50,526 bases of DNA from an uncultured Rhizobium sp. (GTDB lineage Bacteria > Bacteroidota > Bacteroidia > NS11-12g > UBA955), in assembly GCA_964492925.1 (NCBI GenBank), contig CAZBMF010000002.1, positions 1-50,526 on the forward strand, in the 5' to 3' direction. The position numbers were made by a program, and so were the translations under genes. How positions within the stretch are numbered: position 1 is the stretch's first letter; each line of letters begins with the position of its first letter. Below are positions 7,644 to 41,217 of this stretch, in pieces. A model generated the notes under the pieces. That model was given only the letters and a program-made list of their open reading frames with translations. It was not told the DNA's origin and ran no database searches.

Positions 7644-9218
7644 ATGTCACTTTGGAGAAAAAAATCACTTGATGATTTGCTTTTGCAAGCTCAAGGAAGT
7701 AATCTTAAACGCACATTAGGTGCTGGTAGCCTTATAGCTTTAGGTATTGGTGCCATAATTGGTGCTGGTTTGTTCGTGAGAACCGCTGCTGCGGCCACTG
7801 AAGCTGCCGGTTCTGGTGTTACGCTTTCATTTATAGTTGCCGCTATCGGTTGCGCTTTTGCAGGACTTTGTTACGCAGAGTTTGCCGCAATGATTCCAAT
7901 TTCTGGAAGTGCTTATGCCTATTCTTTTGTTACAATGGGTGAATTGGTTGCCTGGATCATCGGATGGTCTTTGGTGATGGAATACGCCCTTGGTGCTGCT
8001 ACCGTTTCAATTGCTTGGAGTGAATATCTGAATAATTTGTTGGGTGGAGCCATTCCTTACGAATGGTGTCATTCTCCTTTTGAAAAATTATACCAAGTTT
8101 CAGCCAATGTTGTAACCCAGCTACAAGCGTTACCTGGTGATTGGAAAGGTATTGAAAAAGGTATTTTAAGTGCCGATCAATTTGCTTACCTATCTAAAAA
8201 TTATCAGCACATGGTAAGCAATGTTACCATTACCAATGGTATCATCAATTCCCCCGCTTTGGTAATTTTGTTGGCTCTTACACTTCTCCTTATTAAAGGT
8301 ACAAAAGAATCTGCCTTGGTGAATGCAATTATTGTATTCATTAAAGTTGCAATTGTATTGTTATTTATTACAATTGGTTGGAAATTTATCAATCCTGTAA
8401 ACCATACACCTTACTTGATTCCTGAAGGCACCGTAGGGCACGAAGGTTTCTTTAAATGGGGATGGGGCGGCGTTCTTGGTGGTGCGGGAATTGTTTTCTT
8501 TGCCTTTATTGGTTTTGATGCTGTAAGTACCACTGCTCAAGAAGCAAAGAACCCTAAAAGAGATATGCCTATTGGTATTCTAGGCTCTTTGGCCGTTTGT
8601 ACCGTACTTTATATCCTTTTTGGACACGTTTTAACCGGTGTGGCTCATCATAGTGAATTTGCTACTGCAGGTAAAGAAGCTTCTGTCTCTTATGTAATTC
8701 AAAATTATATGAAGGGTTTTGAATGGTTGGGTACTTCTGTAACCCTTGCCATTTTGGCTGGTTTCTCTTCTGTTATTTTGGTGATGTTGATGGGACAAAG
8801 TCGCGTATTTTATTCTATGAGCCAAGATGGTTTAATTCCAAAAGCATTTGGTGAATTGCATCCAAAATATCAAACTCCTTTTAAAGCAAATTGGATTCTA
8901 TTCTTGTTTGTAGGTGCGTTTTCTGCTTTTGTTCCAGGAAGTATTGCTGGCGATTTAACCTCTTTCGGTACACTTTTTGCTTTCGTTTTGGTGAGTTTAG
9001 GTATTCTAATCATGCGTAAAAGCAATCCTGATTTACCGCGTCCATTTAAAACCCCGTTAGTTCCTTTAGTGCCTATTCTCGGAGTAATTGTATGTTCAGC
9101 AATGATCATTGCACTCGATGCTTTTACCCTCAAGGCTGCTGTTTTATGGATGATTTTAGGATTGATTATCTATTTTACCTACAGTCGTAAGAATTCTCAC
9201 CTACACAAAAAAGATTAA
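7644..9218 (+). CDS. Amino acid permease, APC superfamily (cationic amino acid transporter-like)
   Basis: 524-aa polytopic ORF with an APC-type N-terminus (LKRTLGAGSLIALGIGAIIGAGLF). Confidence 0.85.
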   Translation: MSLWRKKSLDDLLLQAQGSNLKRTLGAGSLIALGIGAIIGAGLFVRTAAAATEAAGSGVTLSFIVAAIGCAFAGLCYAEFAAMIPISGSAYAYSFVTMGELVAWIIGWSLVMEYALGAATVSIAWSEYLNNLLGGAIPYEWCHSPFEKLYQVSANVVTQLQALPGDWKGIEKGILSADQFAYLSKNYQHMVSNVTITNGIINSPALVILLALTLLLIKGTKESALVNAIIVFIKVAIVLLFITIGWKFINPVNHTPYLIPEGTVGHEGFFKWGWGGVLGGAGIVFFAFIGFDAVSTTAQEAKNPKRDMPIGILGSLAVCTVLYILFGHVLTGVAHHSEFATAGKEASVSYVIQNYMKGFEWLGTSVTLAILAGFSSVILVMLMGQSRVFYSMSQDGLIPKAFGELHPKYQTPFKANWILFLFVGAFSAFVPGSIAGDLTSFGTLFAFVLVSLGILIMRKSNPDLPRPFKTPLVPLVPILGVIVCSAMIIALDAFTLKAAVLWMILGLIIYFTYSRKNSHLHKKD

Positions 9219-9242
9219 TCAAATAAATTTTGTATACTTGAA

Positions 9243-9274
9243 AAACCCTTTTGTTTATCAAAAGGGTTTTTTTT
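9243..9274 (+). terminator. Rho-independent terminator after the first permease
   Basis: AAACCCTTTT-gtttatc-AAAAGGGTTT hairpin followed by a T-run. Confidence 0.8.
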
Positions 9275-9286
9275 ATTGATAAGCTC

Positions 9287-30228: not shown

Positions 30229-30236
30229 TAACTTTG
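30229..30236 (+). promoter_or_regulatory. -7 promoter box TAACTTTG for the sulfatase gene
   Basis: perfect TAnnTTTG 21 nt upstream of ATG 30258. Confidence 0.45.
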
Positions 30237-30257
30237 GTCAAAATTTATTCTAACTTA

Positions 30258-31826
30258 ATGAAAAATATACTGTTAATCTTCTTCTTTCTAATTTTCAAAT
30301 TACAGGCGCAACACAATGTAATACTAATCATTGCCGATGATTTAGGATCAGATTATTGTGGTTTTTATGAAAATCATATCGACACCGCCAAAATGCCGAA
30401 TATTCGAAAATTATTGTCTCGAGGGATAAGATTCAGTCAAACTTGGTCAAATCCAGTTTGTTCTCCTACTCGGGCAGGAATATTGACCGGCCGTTATTCT
30501 TTTAGAACCGGATTGGGTGATGTGGTGGCAGGAACTGGCTCCAAAGAACTTGATACCAGTGAGAAAACCATACCCAAACTCCTCAAATCTTTGAGTAACA
30601 ATAAACTTAAAACGGCCAATTTTGGGAAATGGCACTTGTCGTTGGCTAAACCTATTCAATTAAATTATCCTAATTATTTCGGATTCGATGATTACGCGGG
30701 TAATTTCTCTGGTACTTTATCTTCTTATACCAGTTGGACAAAAATTACCAATGGTACATCTTCTACCTCTGTCAATTATGCAACCACTGAGCAAACTAAT
30801 GATGCCATAAATTGGCTTAAAGTCAATAAAAATAGCGATAAATTCCTTTGGCTGGCATACAATGCCCCTCATTCTCCTTTTCATTTGCCCCCATTGAATT
30901 TGCATTCAAGCAAAAGTCTACCCGGAACATCTGCTCATATCAATGCCAATCCTCAATTATATTTTAAAGCCATGGTGGAAGCCATGGATACTGAAATTGG
31001 TCGCTTAATGGATTCATTAAAATCTTGGAATATGTACGATCAAACCGATTTCATATTCATTGGTGATAATGGAGATGATGCTCAGGTGAATCAAGGTGTT
31101 AATAGTTCCAAAGGCACCTTATTGCAAGATGGTATTCATGTTCCCATGATTATTTCTGGACCATCGGTTTTGGCCCCCAACACTGTGAATCATTCAGTAG
31201 TAAATACCACCGATATTTTTGCAACAGTTTTAGAATTATTTGGTTTTTCTAATTGGCAAAAATCAATTCCCTCAAGCACTATAATTGATTCAAAATCATT
31301 GCTTCCCATCATTAAAAATCAATCTGTACAAGTGAGAGATTGGGCGTTTTCAGAAATATTCAAAACTACTACCGATGCCAATGATGGTAAAACTATGCGC
31401 AATGCTACGCACAAGTTAATTGACTTTGACAATGGTTCGCAGAAGTTCTTTAATCTAGCATCAGATTCAACTGAACAATTGAATTTGATTGGCAAACAAT
31501 TTTCTGATGAAGATGGATTGAATTACGCTTACTTATGTCAGGAAATGGCCAAATTAACAGGGTTGAATCGTTTTTGTGACGATAATGTTGGCGCGAAGTC
31601 AATGTCCCTCAAGAATCAAATTTACCCGAATCCATTTTCTACCGAAATTCATATTCCTGAAACGTTGATAGGGCAATTTTTTCAAGTTTACAATGCATTG
31701 GGACAAGTTGTTTTTGAGGGACATTCTTCCGAAACAATTCATTTAAAGCATTTGCAATCTGGTATTTACCACCTGGTATTTGCGAATTCCCTTATAAATA
31801 ATTCCGTTATTGTGAAAAAACCTTAA
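30258..31826 (+). CDS. Cys-type sulfatase with a T9SS C-terminal sorting domain
   Basis: ATG 30258 (MKNILLIFFFL signal peptide); formylglycine signature CSPTRAGILTGR; C-terminal YPNPFSTEIHI...GIYHLVF. Confidence 0.85.
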   Translation: MKNILLIFFFLIFKLQAQHNVILIIADDLGSDYCGFYENHIDTAKMPNIRKLLSRGIRFSQTWSNPVCSPTRAGILTGRYSFRTGLGDVVAGTGSKELDTSEKTIPKLLKSLSNNKLKTANFGKWHLSLAKPIQLNYPNYFGFDDYAGNFSGTLSSYTSWTKITNGTSSTSVNYATTEQTNDAINWLKVNKNSDKFLWLAYNAPHSPFHLPPLNLHSSKSLPGTSAHINANPQLYFKAMVEAMDTEIGRLMDSLKSWNMYDQTDFIFIGDNGDDAQVNQGVNSSKGTLLQDGIHVPMIISGPSVLAPNTVNHSVVNTTDIFATVLELFGFSNWQKSIPSSTIIDSKSLLPIIKNQSVQVRDWAFSEIFKTTTDANDGKTMRNATHKLIDFDNGSQKFFNLASDSTEQLNLIGKQFSDEDGLNYAYLCQEMAKLTGLNRFCDDNVGAKSMSLKNQIYPNPFSTEIHIPETLIGQFFQVYNALGQVVFEGHSSETIHLKHLQSGIYHLVFANSLINNSVIVKKP

Positions 31827-35552: not shown

Positions 35553-35627
35553 GGTCCCGTAGTTCAATGGATAGAATAGATGTTTCCTAAACATTTGATA
35601 TGAGTTCGATTCTCGTCGGGACTACCA
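35553..35627 (+). tRNA. tRNA-Arg (anticodon CCT), CCA encoded
   Basis: hand-folded cloverleaf: acceptor GGTCCCG/CGGGACT, D arm GTTC..GAAT, anticodon stem GATGT/ACATT with loop TTCCTAA, T arm ATGAG-TTCGATT-CTCGT, discriminator A, then CCA. Confidence 0.9.
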
Positions 35628-38300: not shown

Positions 38301-38318
38301 AATTTGTTTAAACAAATT
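38301..38318. repeat. 18-bp perfect palindrome AATTTGTTTAAACAAATT
   Basis: read directly; every position pairs; its left 13 nt recur at 40745-40757; overlaps a plus-strand TAAATTTG box at 38299-38306. Confidence 0.7.
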
Positions 38319-38429
38319 ATGTAAATAATCTCAAAATTCGTTCAAATATGATCTAAAATCTAGTGAATTGAAGCTATGTTAATATGGGGGTATCAGAATT
38401 TTATTTCAATTTCAGCGTTATGATTTAAT

Positions 38430-39577: not shown

Positions 39578-39585
39578 TATCTTTG
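39578..39585 (+). promoter_or_regulatory. -7 promoter box TATCTTTG for the kinase/DUF3037 pair
   Basis: perfect TAnnTTTG 14 nt upstream of ATG 39600, within the 33-nt gap after the vWA gene. Confidence 0.45.
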
Positions 39586-39599
39586 AACTTTATAGGTTC

Positions 39600-40388
39600 A
39601 TGATTTTTGAGGGACAAAATTTGCGCACAGTTCAGGTTACACGCTATGTAACTCCATTGAGAGAAGGCGGATCAATGCCCGCTTTGGCTGAAGCCGACGA
39701 TGGTTTTTTATATGTTTTGAAATTTAGAGGTGCAGGACAAGGCCCTAAAGTGCTGATTTCTGAACTCATTGGTGGTGAAATAGCGAGATTGTTGAAGCTT
39801 AGGGTTCCAGAATTGGTGTTTGCAGAGTTGAATGAAGCTTTCGGCAGAACCGAACCCGATGAGGAAATTCAGGATCTTTTAAAAGCGAGTACTGGACTTA
39901 ATTTGGCTTTGCATTTTTTATCAGGTGCCTTTGGTTTTGATCCTGTAGCCAATAAAGTGGATGCGCTGTTGGCATCAAAAATTGTGTGGTTGGATGCATT
40001 TTTAATGAATATGGACAGAACTGTCCGAAATACCAACCTGCTCATTTGGAACCAAGAACTTTGGCTCATAGATCATGGTGCAGCTTTGTATTTTCACCAT
40101 TCAGGACAACCTTGGGATGATAAATTCAACCATCCGTTTGAATTGGTAAAAAAGCATGTTTTGTATTACTATGCCACCAAAATGAATGAAGCCGATCAAT
40201 GGGCGAAACAATGTCTTACCGATGATAAAATAAATCAGGTTGTTTCCATGATTCCCGATGAATGGATCTCTTCTGATTTAATTTACCCTTCAGTTGAAGA
40301 TCAGAGAGCGGCATATGCCAATTTTTTAAAAAATAGATTACAATCATCTCAATCATTTATTCAATCTATTCCTCATGGCACAAAATAA
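39600..40388 (+). CDS. HipA-like (PI3/4-kinase-fold) protein kinase
   Basis: 262 aa; catalytic-loop-like NMDRTVRNTN and Mg-binding-like WLIDHGAAL; N-terminal YVLKFRGAGQGPK. Confidence 0.75.
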   Translation: MIFEGQNLRTVQVTRYVTPLREGGSMPALAEADDGFLYVLKFRGAGQGPKVLISELIGGEIARLLKLRVPELVFAELNEAFGRTEPDEEIQDLLKASTGLNLALHFLSGAFGFDPVANKVDALLASKIVWLDAFLMNMDRTVRNTNLLIWNQELWLIDHGAALYFHHSGQPWDDKFNHPFELVKKHVLYYYATKMNEADQWAKQCLTDDKINQVVSMIPDEWISSDLIYPSVEDQRAAYANFLKNRLQSSQSFIQSIPHGTK

Positions 40389-40755
40389 GGTTTTTGAATA
40401 TGCGGTGATTCGATTGGTTCCAATAGTGGAACGAGAGGAGTTTTTAAATATTGGCGTAGTTTTATTTTGTAAAGAACTTGATTACATCAATGTAAAATTC
40501 CATTTGAACATACCAAAAATAGAGGTCTTTGCACCACAAGTTGAACTTAATTTGTTGCAAGATTATTTGAAATCATTCGAAAATATTGTTCTTGGAAATG
40601 ATTCCGGTGGTGAAATAGCTACCTATATTCCTGCTGAAAGATTTAGGTGGTTAACTGCTACTAGAAGCACAATTTTACAATGCTCCAAAGTCCATCCTGG
40701 ATTTTGTGATGATCCGGAAGTTAAGTTAAATCAATTGTTTACAGAATTTGTTTAA
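40375..40755 (+). CDS. DUF3037-family protein
   Basis: 126 aa; hallmark N-terminus FEYAVIRLVPIVEREEFLNIGVVLFC; the start overlaps the kinase gene by 14 nt. Confidence 0.75.
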   Translation: MAQNKVFEYAVIRLVPIVEREEFLNIGVVLFCKELDYINVKFHLNIPKIEVFAPQVELNLLQDYLKSFENIVLGNDSGGEIATYIPAERFRWLTATRSTILQCSKVHPGFCDDPEVKLNQLFTEFV

Positions 40756-40778
40756 ACCTATTGTTTAAACATCAAATT
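40745..40778. repeat. Imperfect inverted repeat containing two GTTTAAAC cores, spanning both convergent stop codons
   Basis: aatttGTTTAAAC ctatt GTTTAAAC atc aaatt; 40745-40757 is identical to 38301-38313. Confidence 0.6.
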
Positions 40779-41217
40779 GTCTTAAATGATGATCTAGGTG
40801 TTTATATAGCATGTTGTTCCACTCAACTGCAGTAAGTTTCCCCAAGGTGCTGTGAGATTTTCCTTCAAAATAATCAGCCCCCAATTCATGAGTTTTTTGG
40901 ATAAGGCTGATTAACTCATTTTTTGTTTCTTCAATGTCGGGCGAATTGGCAATGATGAAATTTGGTGCTGTTGGCAAATTTTCTTTGTACGGAGTTTCAT
41001 TGATCATTGACTGTTTGAAGAAAATTCTGACCATTGTTCTCATCAAAAATGGCGCTTTAGGGGCGTCTTCATTGAATATTTGAACGTATGGAATGGTGCA
41101 ATGCTTCAGCATTTGTGAAACATTCATTTTCCCCCAATGAGCTGTAGATTCTTTGGTTAATTTTTGAATTCTATTGATTAGAATATTGATTTCATTGCTA
41201 TCAAAGCATTTTAACAT
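40765..41217 (-). CDS. DinB-superfamily protein (DUF1569-like)
   Basis: 150 aa; HWGKMNVSQMLKH and C-terminal HLDHHLRQF His motifs. Confidence 0.75.
   Translation of the reverse strand: MLKCFDSNEINILINRIQKLTKESTAHWGKMNVSQMLKHCTIPYVQIFNEDAPKAPFLMRTMVRIFFKQSMINETPYKENLPTAPNFIIANSPDIEETKNELISLIQKTHELGADYFEGKSHSTLGKLTAVEWNNMLYKHLDHHLRQFDV

Follow-up and report, generated by a model that had tools for sequence, protein, structure and literature searches.

HipA-like kinases that are encoded together with DUF3037 proteins have been studied experimentally in two published works. In the Retron-Sda1 locus of Sphingobacterium daejeonense such a pair acts as a stand-alone defence against phage Bas51; deletion of the kinase abolishes defence, deletion of the DUF3037 gene is toxic, and the retron reverse transcriptase and non-coding RNA are dispensable (PMC12548924). 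In its C-terminal part, the Sda1 DUF3037 protein is like retron type III-A1 DNA-binding proteins (PMC12548924). The DefensePredictor study validated the system DS-6, which consists of a HipA-related kinase (DS-6A) and a protein with DUF3037 and DUF1829 domains (DS-6B). A catalytic mutant of DS-6A lost defence, and AlphaFold3 predicted an A:B contact with interface predicted template modelling (ipTM) scores of 0.76-0.79 and a weaker B:DNA contact (PMC13092281). According to that paper, DS-6 was also found independently by Brenes & Laub 2025, who named it HipAD. Here we analyse two overlapping genes for a HipA_2-family kinase and a DUF3037 protein in a stretch of 50,526 nucleotides (nt) of contig CAZBMF010000002.1 from an uncultured member of the Bacteroidota (the window).

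The combination of a HipA-like kinase and DUF3037 is already catalogued and experimentally validated as an anti-phage system of the toxin-antitoxin (TA) type. An earlier note on this DNA had considered the pair an undescribed system and had known of no experimentally assigned function for DUF3037 or for the pairing. Neither statement holds, as PADLOC-DB v2 (2023) contains models for the pair (PDC-M66A/B) to which each of the window proteins has a match, PMC12548924 and PMC13092281 tested such pairs, and the record of Escherichia phage PhiR5_1 (PV340545.1) annotates a 'HipA toxin' of 249 amino acids (aa) and a 'HipD antitoxin' of 275 aa between cI and kil. The reading of the same note as a toxin-antitoxin or abortive-infection module, on the other hand, is backed by the published experiments on relatives. 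The window pair is thus a domain-minimal, chromosomally stable variant of PDC-M66 / DS-6 / HipAD and not a new system; it is filed as a variant rather than a plain member because its partner has no counterpart of the C-terminal domain found in all tested examples.

Family assignment of the two proteins

The open reading frames (ORFs) of 262 and 126 aa, with the second ATG 14 nt inside the kinase gene, were confirmed at the positions given earlier (Table 1), and the assignment to a HipA-like kinase and DUF3037 was borne out by profile searches. The kinase matched the Pfam family HipA_2 (PF20613; E 2.6e-20, 73.2 bits, cut-off 27) and its partner matched DUF3037 (PF11236; E 5.4e-41, 139.9 bits) with all 118 profile positions covered. 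A model is absent from NCBIfam for both the kinase and the DUF3037 protein. In PADLOC-DB v2.0.0 the kinase matched PDC-M66A over its full length (E 2.7e-25), and the DUF3037 protein matched PDC-M66B at profile positions 2-128 of 281 only (45%; E 9.3e-12).

Individual comparisons with the proteins of PhiR5_1 showed 27% identical aa for the kinase and HipA (E 2e-16) and 21% for the DUF3037 protein and HipD residues 7-125 (E 4e-8). Gene order, strand and overlap in the window are those of the HipA_2 kinase/DUF3037 two-gene system, and we are all but certain that the pair belongs to this family.

Conserved residues and predicted fold of the kinase

We aligned the kinases of short forms, in which the DUF3037 protein ends with its domain (Bacteroidota, Streptomyces, Nonomuraea), with kinases associated with long forms, whose DUF3037 protein continues beyond it (PhiR5_1, Neisseria, two viral contigs). 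Residues invariant across these kinases include K41, E55, D132, N137, D139, R140, N146, I157, D158 and H159, and the residues of the catalytic loop are invariant through Bacteroidota, Actinomycetota, Pseudomonadota and phage kinases. The motifs NMDRTVRNTN and LIDHGAAL, which had been taken as kinase-like elements before, are present and contain several of these residues. At position 25, within the Gly-rich loop REGGS, all six aligned short- and long-form kinases have Ser or Thr. Autophosphorylation in the Gly-rich loop has been reported for HipA (Ser150) and HipT, and by analogy Ser/Thr25 may be an autophosphorylation site.

An AlphaFold2 (AF2) model of the kinase (predicted local distance difference test, pLDDT, 83.4; predicted template modelling score, pTM, 0.85) was compared with solved structures using Foldseek. 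It matched Fam20A/C, H. pylori CtkA and PI4KII-alpha (E 1e-4 to 1e-3, probability 1.00, template modelling (TM) score ~0.5), with Fam20A (E 1.2e-4) and CtkA (E 2.5e-4) as the best matches; Shewanella HipA (4pu5) was found with E 5e-3. Model and invariant residues together display the bilobal fold of kinases, the Lys-Glu pair, the catalytic loop with its Asp and the Asp that binds the metal. When the PDB was searched with the kinase by sequence and by profile, no match emerged, and a profile comparison with E. coli K-12 HipA was not significant (hhalign probability 0.9%). Because these comparisons were null, the link to HipA comes from the Pfam model, the fold search and an alignment of motifs by hand. 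In the latter, YVLK41F corresponds to HIIK181L, MD139RTVRN to TD309GHAKN314 and LID158H to FYD332I of E. coli HipA, and the catalytic-loop pattern D-x3-[KR]-N is common to both proteins. Judged by its residues and its predicted fold, the 262-aa protein looks like a catalytically competent kinase core without the N-terminal subdomain of ~150 residues found in HipA.

Short-form kinases carry an invariant motif of their own, RGAGQGPK, which is absent from PhiR5_1 HipA, and their alignment has a mean column identity of 73%. Several public records label the kinase 'aminotransferase class I and II', for example that of Sulfurimonas phage SNW-1 (locus L109, 1048-1830). As the proteins match HipA_2 and the kinase fold, this label looks like a propagated misannotation.

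The DUF3037 protein

The window protein ends with the DUF3037 domain and has no C-terminal extension resembling DUF1829 or a DNA-binding region. This length is usual in the family, which comprises 1266 clusters at E <= 1e-3 in a search of 1.84 billion clusters; the best 120 homologues all measure 125-134 aa, and a length of at least 180 aa was reached by only 5 of the 150 best cluster representatives.

The AF2 model shows a compact alpha/beta domain (pLDDT 89.8, pTM 0.81). Foldseek detected no significant fold match for it in the PDB (best E 0.6, TM <0.25), with the presence of HipB and HipS chains in the searched copy unconfirmed; sequence and profile searches of the PDB gave no match, and a profile comparison with E. 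coli HipA showed no similarity, so that nothing found here speaks for kinship with HipB or HipS. A DUF3037 protein that would be a HipS-like piece, or a HipA N-subdomain piece split from the kinase, was ruled out by the missing PDB fold match and HipA profile similarity. In a library of predicted viral structures the model matched only four uncharacterised phage proteins (125-287 aa, E 8e-5 to 1.4e-3).

In an alignment of 52 short-form DUF3037 sequences 24 columns are invariant, often with a charged or polar residue; these columns include E8, Y9, R13, R20, E22, N25, R89-F-R-W-L93, R97, S98, Q102, S104 and H107-P-G. When short and long forms were aligned together, only E22, N25, G27, L65 and Q102 stayed invariant. 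The motifs RFRWLTATRS and HPG are specific for the short form; both are shared by Streptomyces, and RFRWLTATRS is found in Parabacteroides too, but not in PhiR5_1 HipD or in the loci L096 and L097. The motif might serve as an interface with the kinase or as a phospho-acceptor.

Pairing with the kinase and orphan genes in relatives

A sample of loci (80 from metagenomes, 3 from genomes, and others; numbered with the prefix L) was collected with DUF3037 as the sole query. Upstream sequence of 800 nt or more was available for 84 loci, and in 83 of these a HipA_2 kinase gene lies directly upstream on the same strand. The two genes overlap by 23 nt in 71 of 89 distinct junctions, by 14 nt in seven (the clade of the window), by 11 nt in five and by 4 nt (ATGTGA) in three, which adds up to 86 of the 89. 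The conserved overlap of start and stop codons across the family supports the translational coupling proposed before. No third conserved gene was detected within three genes on each side, where 418 neighbour proteins formed 266 clusters, the commonest of which occurred in 13 loci. With the pair as the only conserved element across ~100 loci, and with the vWA gene that precedes it in the window not part of it, its description as a self-contained two-gene unit stands.

DUF3037 genes without a working kinase were found in four loci, as an orphan (L036), beside a kinase with a frameshift (L072), beside a kinase with an in-frame stop (L078) and beside a remnant (L110). The orphan in L036 (6001-6384) is of the short form and lacks a kinase within 6 kb; it faces dnaA in convergent orientation and adjoins genes for a cyclic nucleotide (cNMP)-binding regulator and a DinB_2 protein. 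On plasmid p1 of Leptolyngbya boryana (L110, 2745-3417) only an 88-aa C-terminal remnant of the kinase is left, at a distance of ~1 kb from an IS110 transposase gene. This locus has kept an intact DUF3037 gene and the 23-nt overlap, and a caspase-family gene and more insertion sequence (IS) elements lie nearby. Recurring loss of the kinase with DUF3037 kept, as in these four loci, is what one would expect were the kinase the costly partner. Intact-looking kinases, with every catalytic residue in place, were also found alone. Streptomyces nigrescens plasmid SNP1 (L106, 2501-3358) carries one with a TetR-like gene downstream, on a replicon without DUF3037, and in Alisedimentitalea (L108, 2489-3925) a kinase has no DUF3037 partner and is abutted by an IS6 transposase gene. 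The asymmetry of TA systems, with orphan antitoxins and never orphan toxins, is therefore suggested for kinase and DUF3037 but not demonstrated, because orphans of both kinds occur.

A proposed kinase toxin held by its co-translated partner

The explanation to which we lean, by a small measure, is that the window pair is a short-form kinase toxin that is silenced by DUF3037 and would be released by phage infection or another insult. It is supported by the family matches, the invariant catalytic residues, the kinase fold, the obligate adjacency of the genes and the conserved overlap. That the kinase would be needed for defence and be toxic without DUF3037 is carried over from relatives, the only members in which this has been seen.

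In the proposed mechanism, the start codon of DUF3037 within the last codons of the kinase gene would couple translation of both proteins from one mRNA and provide a stoichiometric partner. DUF3037 would bind the kinase and keep it inactive, and its domain is probably the kinase-binding module. Phage infection or another insult would upset the complex and free the kinase, which would then phosphorylate an essential cellular target and cause growth arrest; at the population level this arrest would amount to abortive infection. A first candidate for the target would be an aminoacyl-tRNA synthetase, by analogy with HipA, for which glutamyl-tRNA synthetase has been reported, and with HipT. Direct binding of kinase and DUF3037, the trigger, the target and a short form that acts like the long form are parts of this scheme that we infer. 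As the window DUF3037 has no C-terminal extension of the DNA-binding type, the short form probably works without TA-style autorepression of its own promoter. HipS occludes the active site of HipT, and by analogy the invariant, Trp-containing RFRW loop is a speculative candidate for an active-site occluder. We consider a toxin/neutraliser mechanism somewhat probable, whereas an anti-phage role in the source organism is a more tentative proposal to which we give less than an even chance.

Genomic setting and conservation

The window pair is located between genes for Pirin and a vWA protein upstream and DUF1569, ChaN, MoaA and MoeA downstream. The 9 kb further upstream are ordinary chromosome with genes for LysM-GDSL, DUF4956, VTC, a sulfatase sorted by the type IX secretion system (T9SS) and metallo-beta-lactamase (MBL)-rhodanese proteins. 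The sulfatase carries a T9SS C-terminal sorting domain, a hallmark of Bacteroidota. Sulfatase, VTC and MBL-rhodanese families were also found beyond Pirin in the related locus L100 (11269-14343), which suggests a longer-range chromosomal synteny. The GC content is flat along the window. The sole RNA gene found in the 50-kb window is a tRNA-Arg(CCT) 4 kb upstream of the pair. A tRNA-linked island was ruled out; there is no integrase, and the genes between tRNA-Arg and the pair are ordinary and syntenic in relatives.

To avoid selection bias, the comparison of synteny was anchored on Pirin. The pair occupies the same slot in every relative that keeps the synteny (L004, L016, L099 and L100), and the gene content around it varies: vWA is missing in L100, DUF1569 has shrunk to a remnant in L004, and GT87 is present in some of the loci only. 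The loci L101-103 have lost synteny and are uninformative on the slot. An intact copy of the convergent DUF1569 (DinB-like) gene is present in the window, L017 and L099. L004 has only a matching fragment of 32 aa (9181-9276, 81% identity), and L016 and L099 have a GT87 glycosyltransferase gene inserted beside DUF1569. Comparison of the window with L004 showed 83% identical aa for the kinase and 75% for DUF3037, next to 92% for Pirin, 87% for MoaA, 74% for vWA, 64% for MoeA and 61% for ChaN. The window kinase is 63-70% identical to those of Pedobacter and Chitinophagaceae, 58% to that of Parabacteroides (Bacteroidia), 54% to that of Chondrinema (Cytophagia) and 40-44% to those of actinomycetes.

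Of the neighbourhood that the earlier note had considered, the position of the kinase directly before DUF3037 stood, whereas an association with defence or mobile genes was not seen for the short form. Among 137 immediate neighbours of the pair in relatives we detected no integrase, transposase or restriction-modification gene. The most frequent Pfam families of these 137 proteins were ABC transporters, the superfamily 1 (SF1) helicase of one lineage, outer-membrane proteins and MFS transporters. A defence-island context was looked for and not found, as the recurrent PADLOC-positive neighbours were only ABC ATPases and the lineage-specific SF1 helicase. This helicase, a protein of 637 aa (AAA_11/AAA_12), is encoded directly downstream of the pair on the same strand and is followed by a topoisomerase gene in L007 (9208-11121) and 6-8 other Pedobacter-like loci; it matched the PADLOC models for MkoA (Mokosh) with up to E 6e-97.

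The short form was absent from 2.9 million viral contigs, in which the scan revealed only two weak relatives, both of them long forms with a kinase upstream. The phage-borne copies of PhiR5_1 and Sulfurimonas SNW-1 are long forms as well. Matches assigned to plasmids lie on very large replicons (0.13-12 Mb), eight of nine of which were typed as non-mobilizable, and their flanks were housekeeping genes where inspected. The window pair itself has no prophage, defence-island or mobile context.

A number of these results weigh against the toxin explanation. The pair has no mobile or restriction-modification neighbours and is missing, in its short form, from viral contigs; it keeps its slot in all relatives with conserved synteny, is conserved as well as its housekeeping neighbours in L004, and has a slow-evolving kinase that is 63-70% identical across classes of Bacteroidota. 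DUF3037 is predicted to be compact and well folded, unlike a typical labile antitoxin. Identity to the tested E. coli system is low and the short form has invariant motifs of its own. No experimentally tested short, domain-only DUF3037 pair was found in the literature examined, where the tested partners carry a C-terminal extension, and the intact-looking kinases without DUF3037 in L106 and L108 are awkward for a strictly lethal toxin.

Much of this would be accounted for by a housekeeping signalling module of Bacteroidota and Actinomycetota, in which a vertically inherited kinase acts in normal physiology or stress together with DUF3037 as its obligate regulatory subunit or dedicated substrate, and the mobile long-form HipAD is a derived, weaponised offshoot or else the ancestor. 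Such a module fits the slow evolution (including the mean column identity of the kinases and the invariant DUF3037 columns), a conservation equal to that of the housekeeping neighbours, a slot that is kept while vWA, DUF1569 and GT87 genes change, the drop of kinase identity with taxonomic distance, and the missing enrichment of mobile and defence genes or viral copies. A partner that is well folded and without a DNA-binding domain for TA-style autoregulation, and the orphan intact kinase that S. nigrescens tolerates, point in the same direction. In the only experiments on the family, however, DUF3037 relieves a toxicity of the kinase and the system acts against phage, and one of the pairs comes from a Bacteroidota host, Sphingobacterium. 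In addition, the flanking genes are wholly different between genera, from which it follows that the pair has moved as a unit, and a broken kinase next to an intact partner is seen repeatedly (L072, L078 and, beside IS110, L110). On balance we regard the signalling module as unlikely, though as a serious competitor.

A related and slightly more doubtful proposal is that the short form is no mobile immune system but a kinase-regulator module of ancient origin, passed on vertically in Bacteroidota and Actinomycetota, and that prophage and retron HipAD are a derived branch with an added DNA-binding domain. The invariant surface of DUF3037 (RFRWLTATRS...SKVHPG) would then mark a dedicated regulatory subunit or phospho-substrate.

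The pair could also be a chromosomal TA pair without an anti-phage role, which would cause stochastic or stress-induced dormancy (persistence) as classical hipBA or stabilise its neighbourhood. It shares the biochemical evidence of the phage-released toxin, and a stable chromosomal place without defence neighbours fits it better than a defence-island system. The window sequence does not separate the two. Both tested relatives protect against phage and the high conservation speaks against a purely selfish addiction element, so that we consider a TA pair of this kind improbable.

Upstream region and repeats

The vWA gene ends 33 nt before the kinase gene. Its product has 378 aa, and the gap fits no small ORF, in agreement with the earlier statement that a helix-turn-helix (HTH) antitoxin gene is missing upstream. 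A perfect -7 box had been proposed in this gap, and TATCTTTG is indeed located there. Of the bare pattern TAnnTTTG the window shows no enrichment (87 found vs 78 +/- 8 expected), and on its own the pattern is weak promoter evidence for that reason. In five related loci (L004-6 and L016-17) the kinase ATG is preceded, at 21-22 nt, by a conserved 13-nt block, TATCTTTGAACTT, around which the bases have diverged. This conservation makes a promoter ahead of the kinase plausible, with the box as the candidate. Other window genes likewise have a TAnnTTTG box shortly before their start codons. A -33 TTTG element was not evident upstream of the kinase.

Terminator prediction revealed none in the gap and none after DUF3037, whose stop codon lies 9 nt from the stop codon of the convergent DUF1569 gene. 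As the gap holds no predicted terminator, read-through from the vWA gene is possible. The short repeats claimed for the flanks were found as an AT-rich palindromic repeat of 25-29 nt in two copies with 84-86% match, which enclose the genes for vWA, kinase and DUF3037. The first copy contains a perfect 18-nt palindrome, AATTTGTTTAAACAAATT, and the second lies at the DUF3037 stop codon. The pair of repeats could be due to chance, given AT-rich DNA and two copies only, or else represent a regulatory element or terminator common to both sites, or mark where an old insertion ended.

These repeats (at 38301 and 40745) would bound a three-gene operon of vWA, kinase and DUF3037, in which for example a vWA sensor feeds the kinase. 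In favour of such an operon, the three genes lie on the same strand, only 33 nt without a predicted terminator separate vWA from the kinase, six related loci have vWA ahead of the pair, and the repeat flanks exactly this block. In L100, with a Pirin 83% identical and the same synteny, the pair adjoins Pirin without a vWA gene. No vWA gene was found beside the pair in Pedobacter, Paraflavitalea, Parabacteroides, Chondrinema, Streptomyces and more than 70 metagenome loci, and a conserved -7 box lies between vWA and kinase. A three-gene operon is therefore very improbable, and vWA was rejected as a third component since the pair persists in L100 without it.

An exact 14-nt repeat, GGTGGTGAAATAGC, is present in both the kinase and the DUF3037 gene. 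It encodes GGEIA in each of them (kinase residues 58-62, DUF3037 residues 78-82), at columns that are conserved in both families; most DUF3037 relatives have GGPIA where the window protein has GGEIA. The shared repeat is probably a coincidence.

Table 1. Features of the kinase/DUF3037 locus and its surroundings, with positions in the window
Feature	Position	Strand	Remarks
HipA_2-family Ser/Thr-type protein kinase gene (putative toxin)	39600-40388	+	ATG start, 262 aa; Pfam HipA_2
DUF3037 gene, domain only (putative neutralising partner/antitoxin)	40375-40755	+	ATG start, 126 aa; Pfam DUF3037
Overlap of kinase and DUF3037 genes	40375-40388	+	14 nt; translational coupling read from the overlap
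Gly-rich loop R21-E22-G23-G24-S25	39660-39674	+	invariant in the short-form kinase alignment
K41	39720-39722	+	invariant; fits a Lys-Glu pair as in active kinases
E55	39762-39764	+	invariant; fits a Lys-Glu pair as in active kinases
Catalytic loop NMDRTVRNTN, residues 137-146	40008-40037	+	N137, D139, R140 and N146 invariant
LIDHGAAL, residues 156-163	40065-40088	+	I157-D158-H159 invariant; D158 equivalent to the metal-binding Asp of DFG
RFRWLTATRST motif of DUF3037	40639-40671	+	R89, F90, R91, W92, L93, R97 and S98 invariant in 52 sequences
Candidate Bacteroidota-type -7 promoter box TATCTTTG	39578-39585	+	14 nt 5' of the kinase ATG
End of the vWA gene	39566
AT-rich palindromic repeat, first copy	38301-38329
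Perfect 18-nt palindrome	38301-38318
AT-rich palindromic repeat, second copy	40734-40771
14-nt repeat in the kinase gene	39771-39784
14-nt repeat in the DUF3037 gene	40606-40619
Convergent DUF1569 (DinB-like) gene	40765-41217	-
Sulfatase with T9SS C-terminal sorting domain	30234-31826
tRNA-Arg(CCT)	35553-35627

Implications

All functional data on these kinases come from rare, mobile long forms, while most natural DUF3037 proteins are short, chromosomal, slow-evolving and without ties to defence genes. Should the short form work alike, DUF3037 alone would suffice to neutralise the kinase, and the label of a HipAD-like toxin/antitoxin could be transferred to thousands of genes in Bacteroidota and Actinomycetota. 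If it works differently, one kinase module would be common to housekeeping and immunity. An ancient short-form module would further imply that a kinase module from housekeeping was recruited into immunity in a traceable way, or that the recruitment went in the opposite direction.

Comparison with known systems

The nearest folds to the kinase model include CtkA (3akj/3akk/3akl; TM 0.44-0.54), a secreted pro-inflammatory kinase of similar size (275-296 aa) with 13-15% identity to the window kinase; we know of no DUF3037 partner of CtkA. With classical HipBA and HipBST the window kinase shares the Ser/Thr kinase type of the HipA/PI3-4K-like branch, the D-x3-[KR]-N loop, the downstream metal-binding Asp, a Ser/Thr in the Gly-rich loop and a proposed use as a toxin that arrests growth. 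It differs from the kinase of HipBA in length (262 aa vs 440 aa) and in the absence of the HipA N-terminal subdomain, since Pfam detects HipA_2 only; neither an N-subdomain together with HipA_C nor an upstream HTH HipB, which define classical HipBA, was found. The gene for the putative neutraliser lies downstream, in contrast to HipBA and HipBST, and its product is a non-HTH protein with a fold that has no match among the solved structures searched. In HipBST the antitoxin HipS resembles the HipA N-terminal subdomain, and for such a resemblance the DUF3037 model and profile gave no support.

Both component HMMs (hidden Markov models) of PDC-M66 match the window proteins. PDC-M66 was predicted from its association with defence genes, an association which the short form does not show. 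The Sda1 pair, compared by its published description, comes from a Bacteroidota host and has the same two domains in the same order; its DUF3037 protein carries a C-terminal region and it resides inside a retron operon. It supplies the direct genetic evidence for the kinase as toxic effector and DUF3037 as neutraliser. HipAD differs in several respects. HipD has 275 aa with a C-terminal half of ~145 aa (DUF1829 in DS-6B, with a predicted DNA contact), whereas the window partner has 126 aa; HipAD is placed in a lambdoid prophage (cI-kil) and the window pair among housekeeping genes; the overlap is 4 nt compared with 14 or 23 nt, and HipA and HipD are without the short-form motifs RGAGQGPK and RFRWLTATRS. 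Nevertheless, HipAD/DS-6 and the window pair have the same basic arrangement, a HipA_2 kinase of ~250 aa followed by an overlapping DUF3037 gene, and the same invariant catalytic residues.

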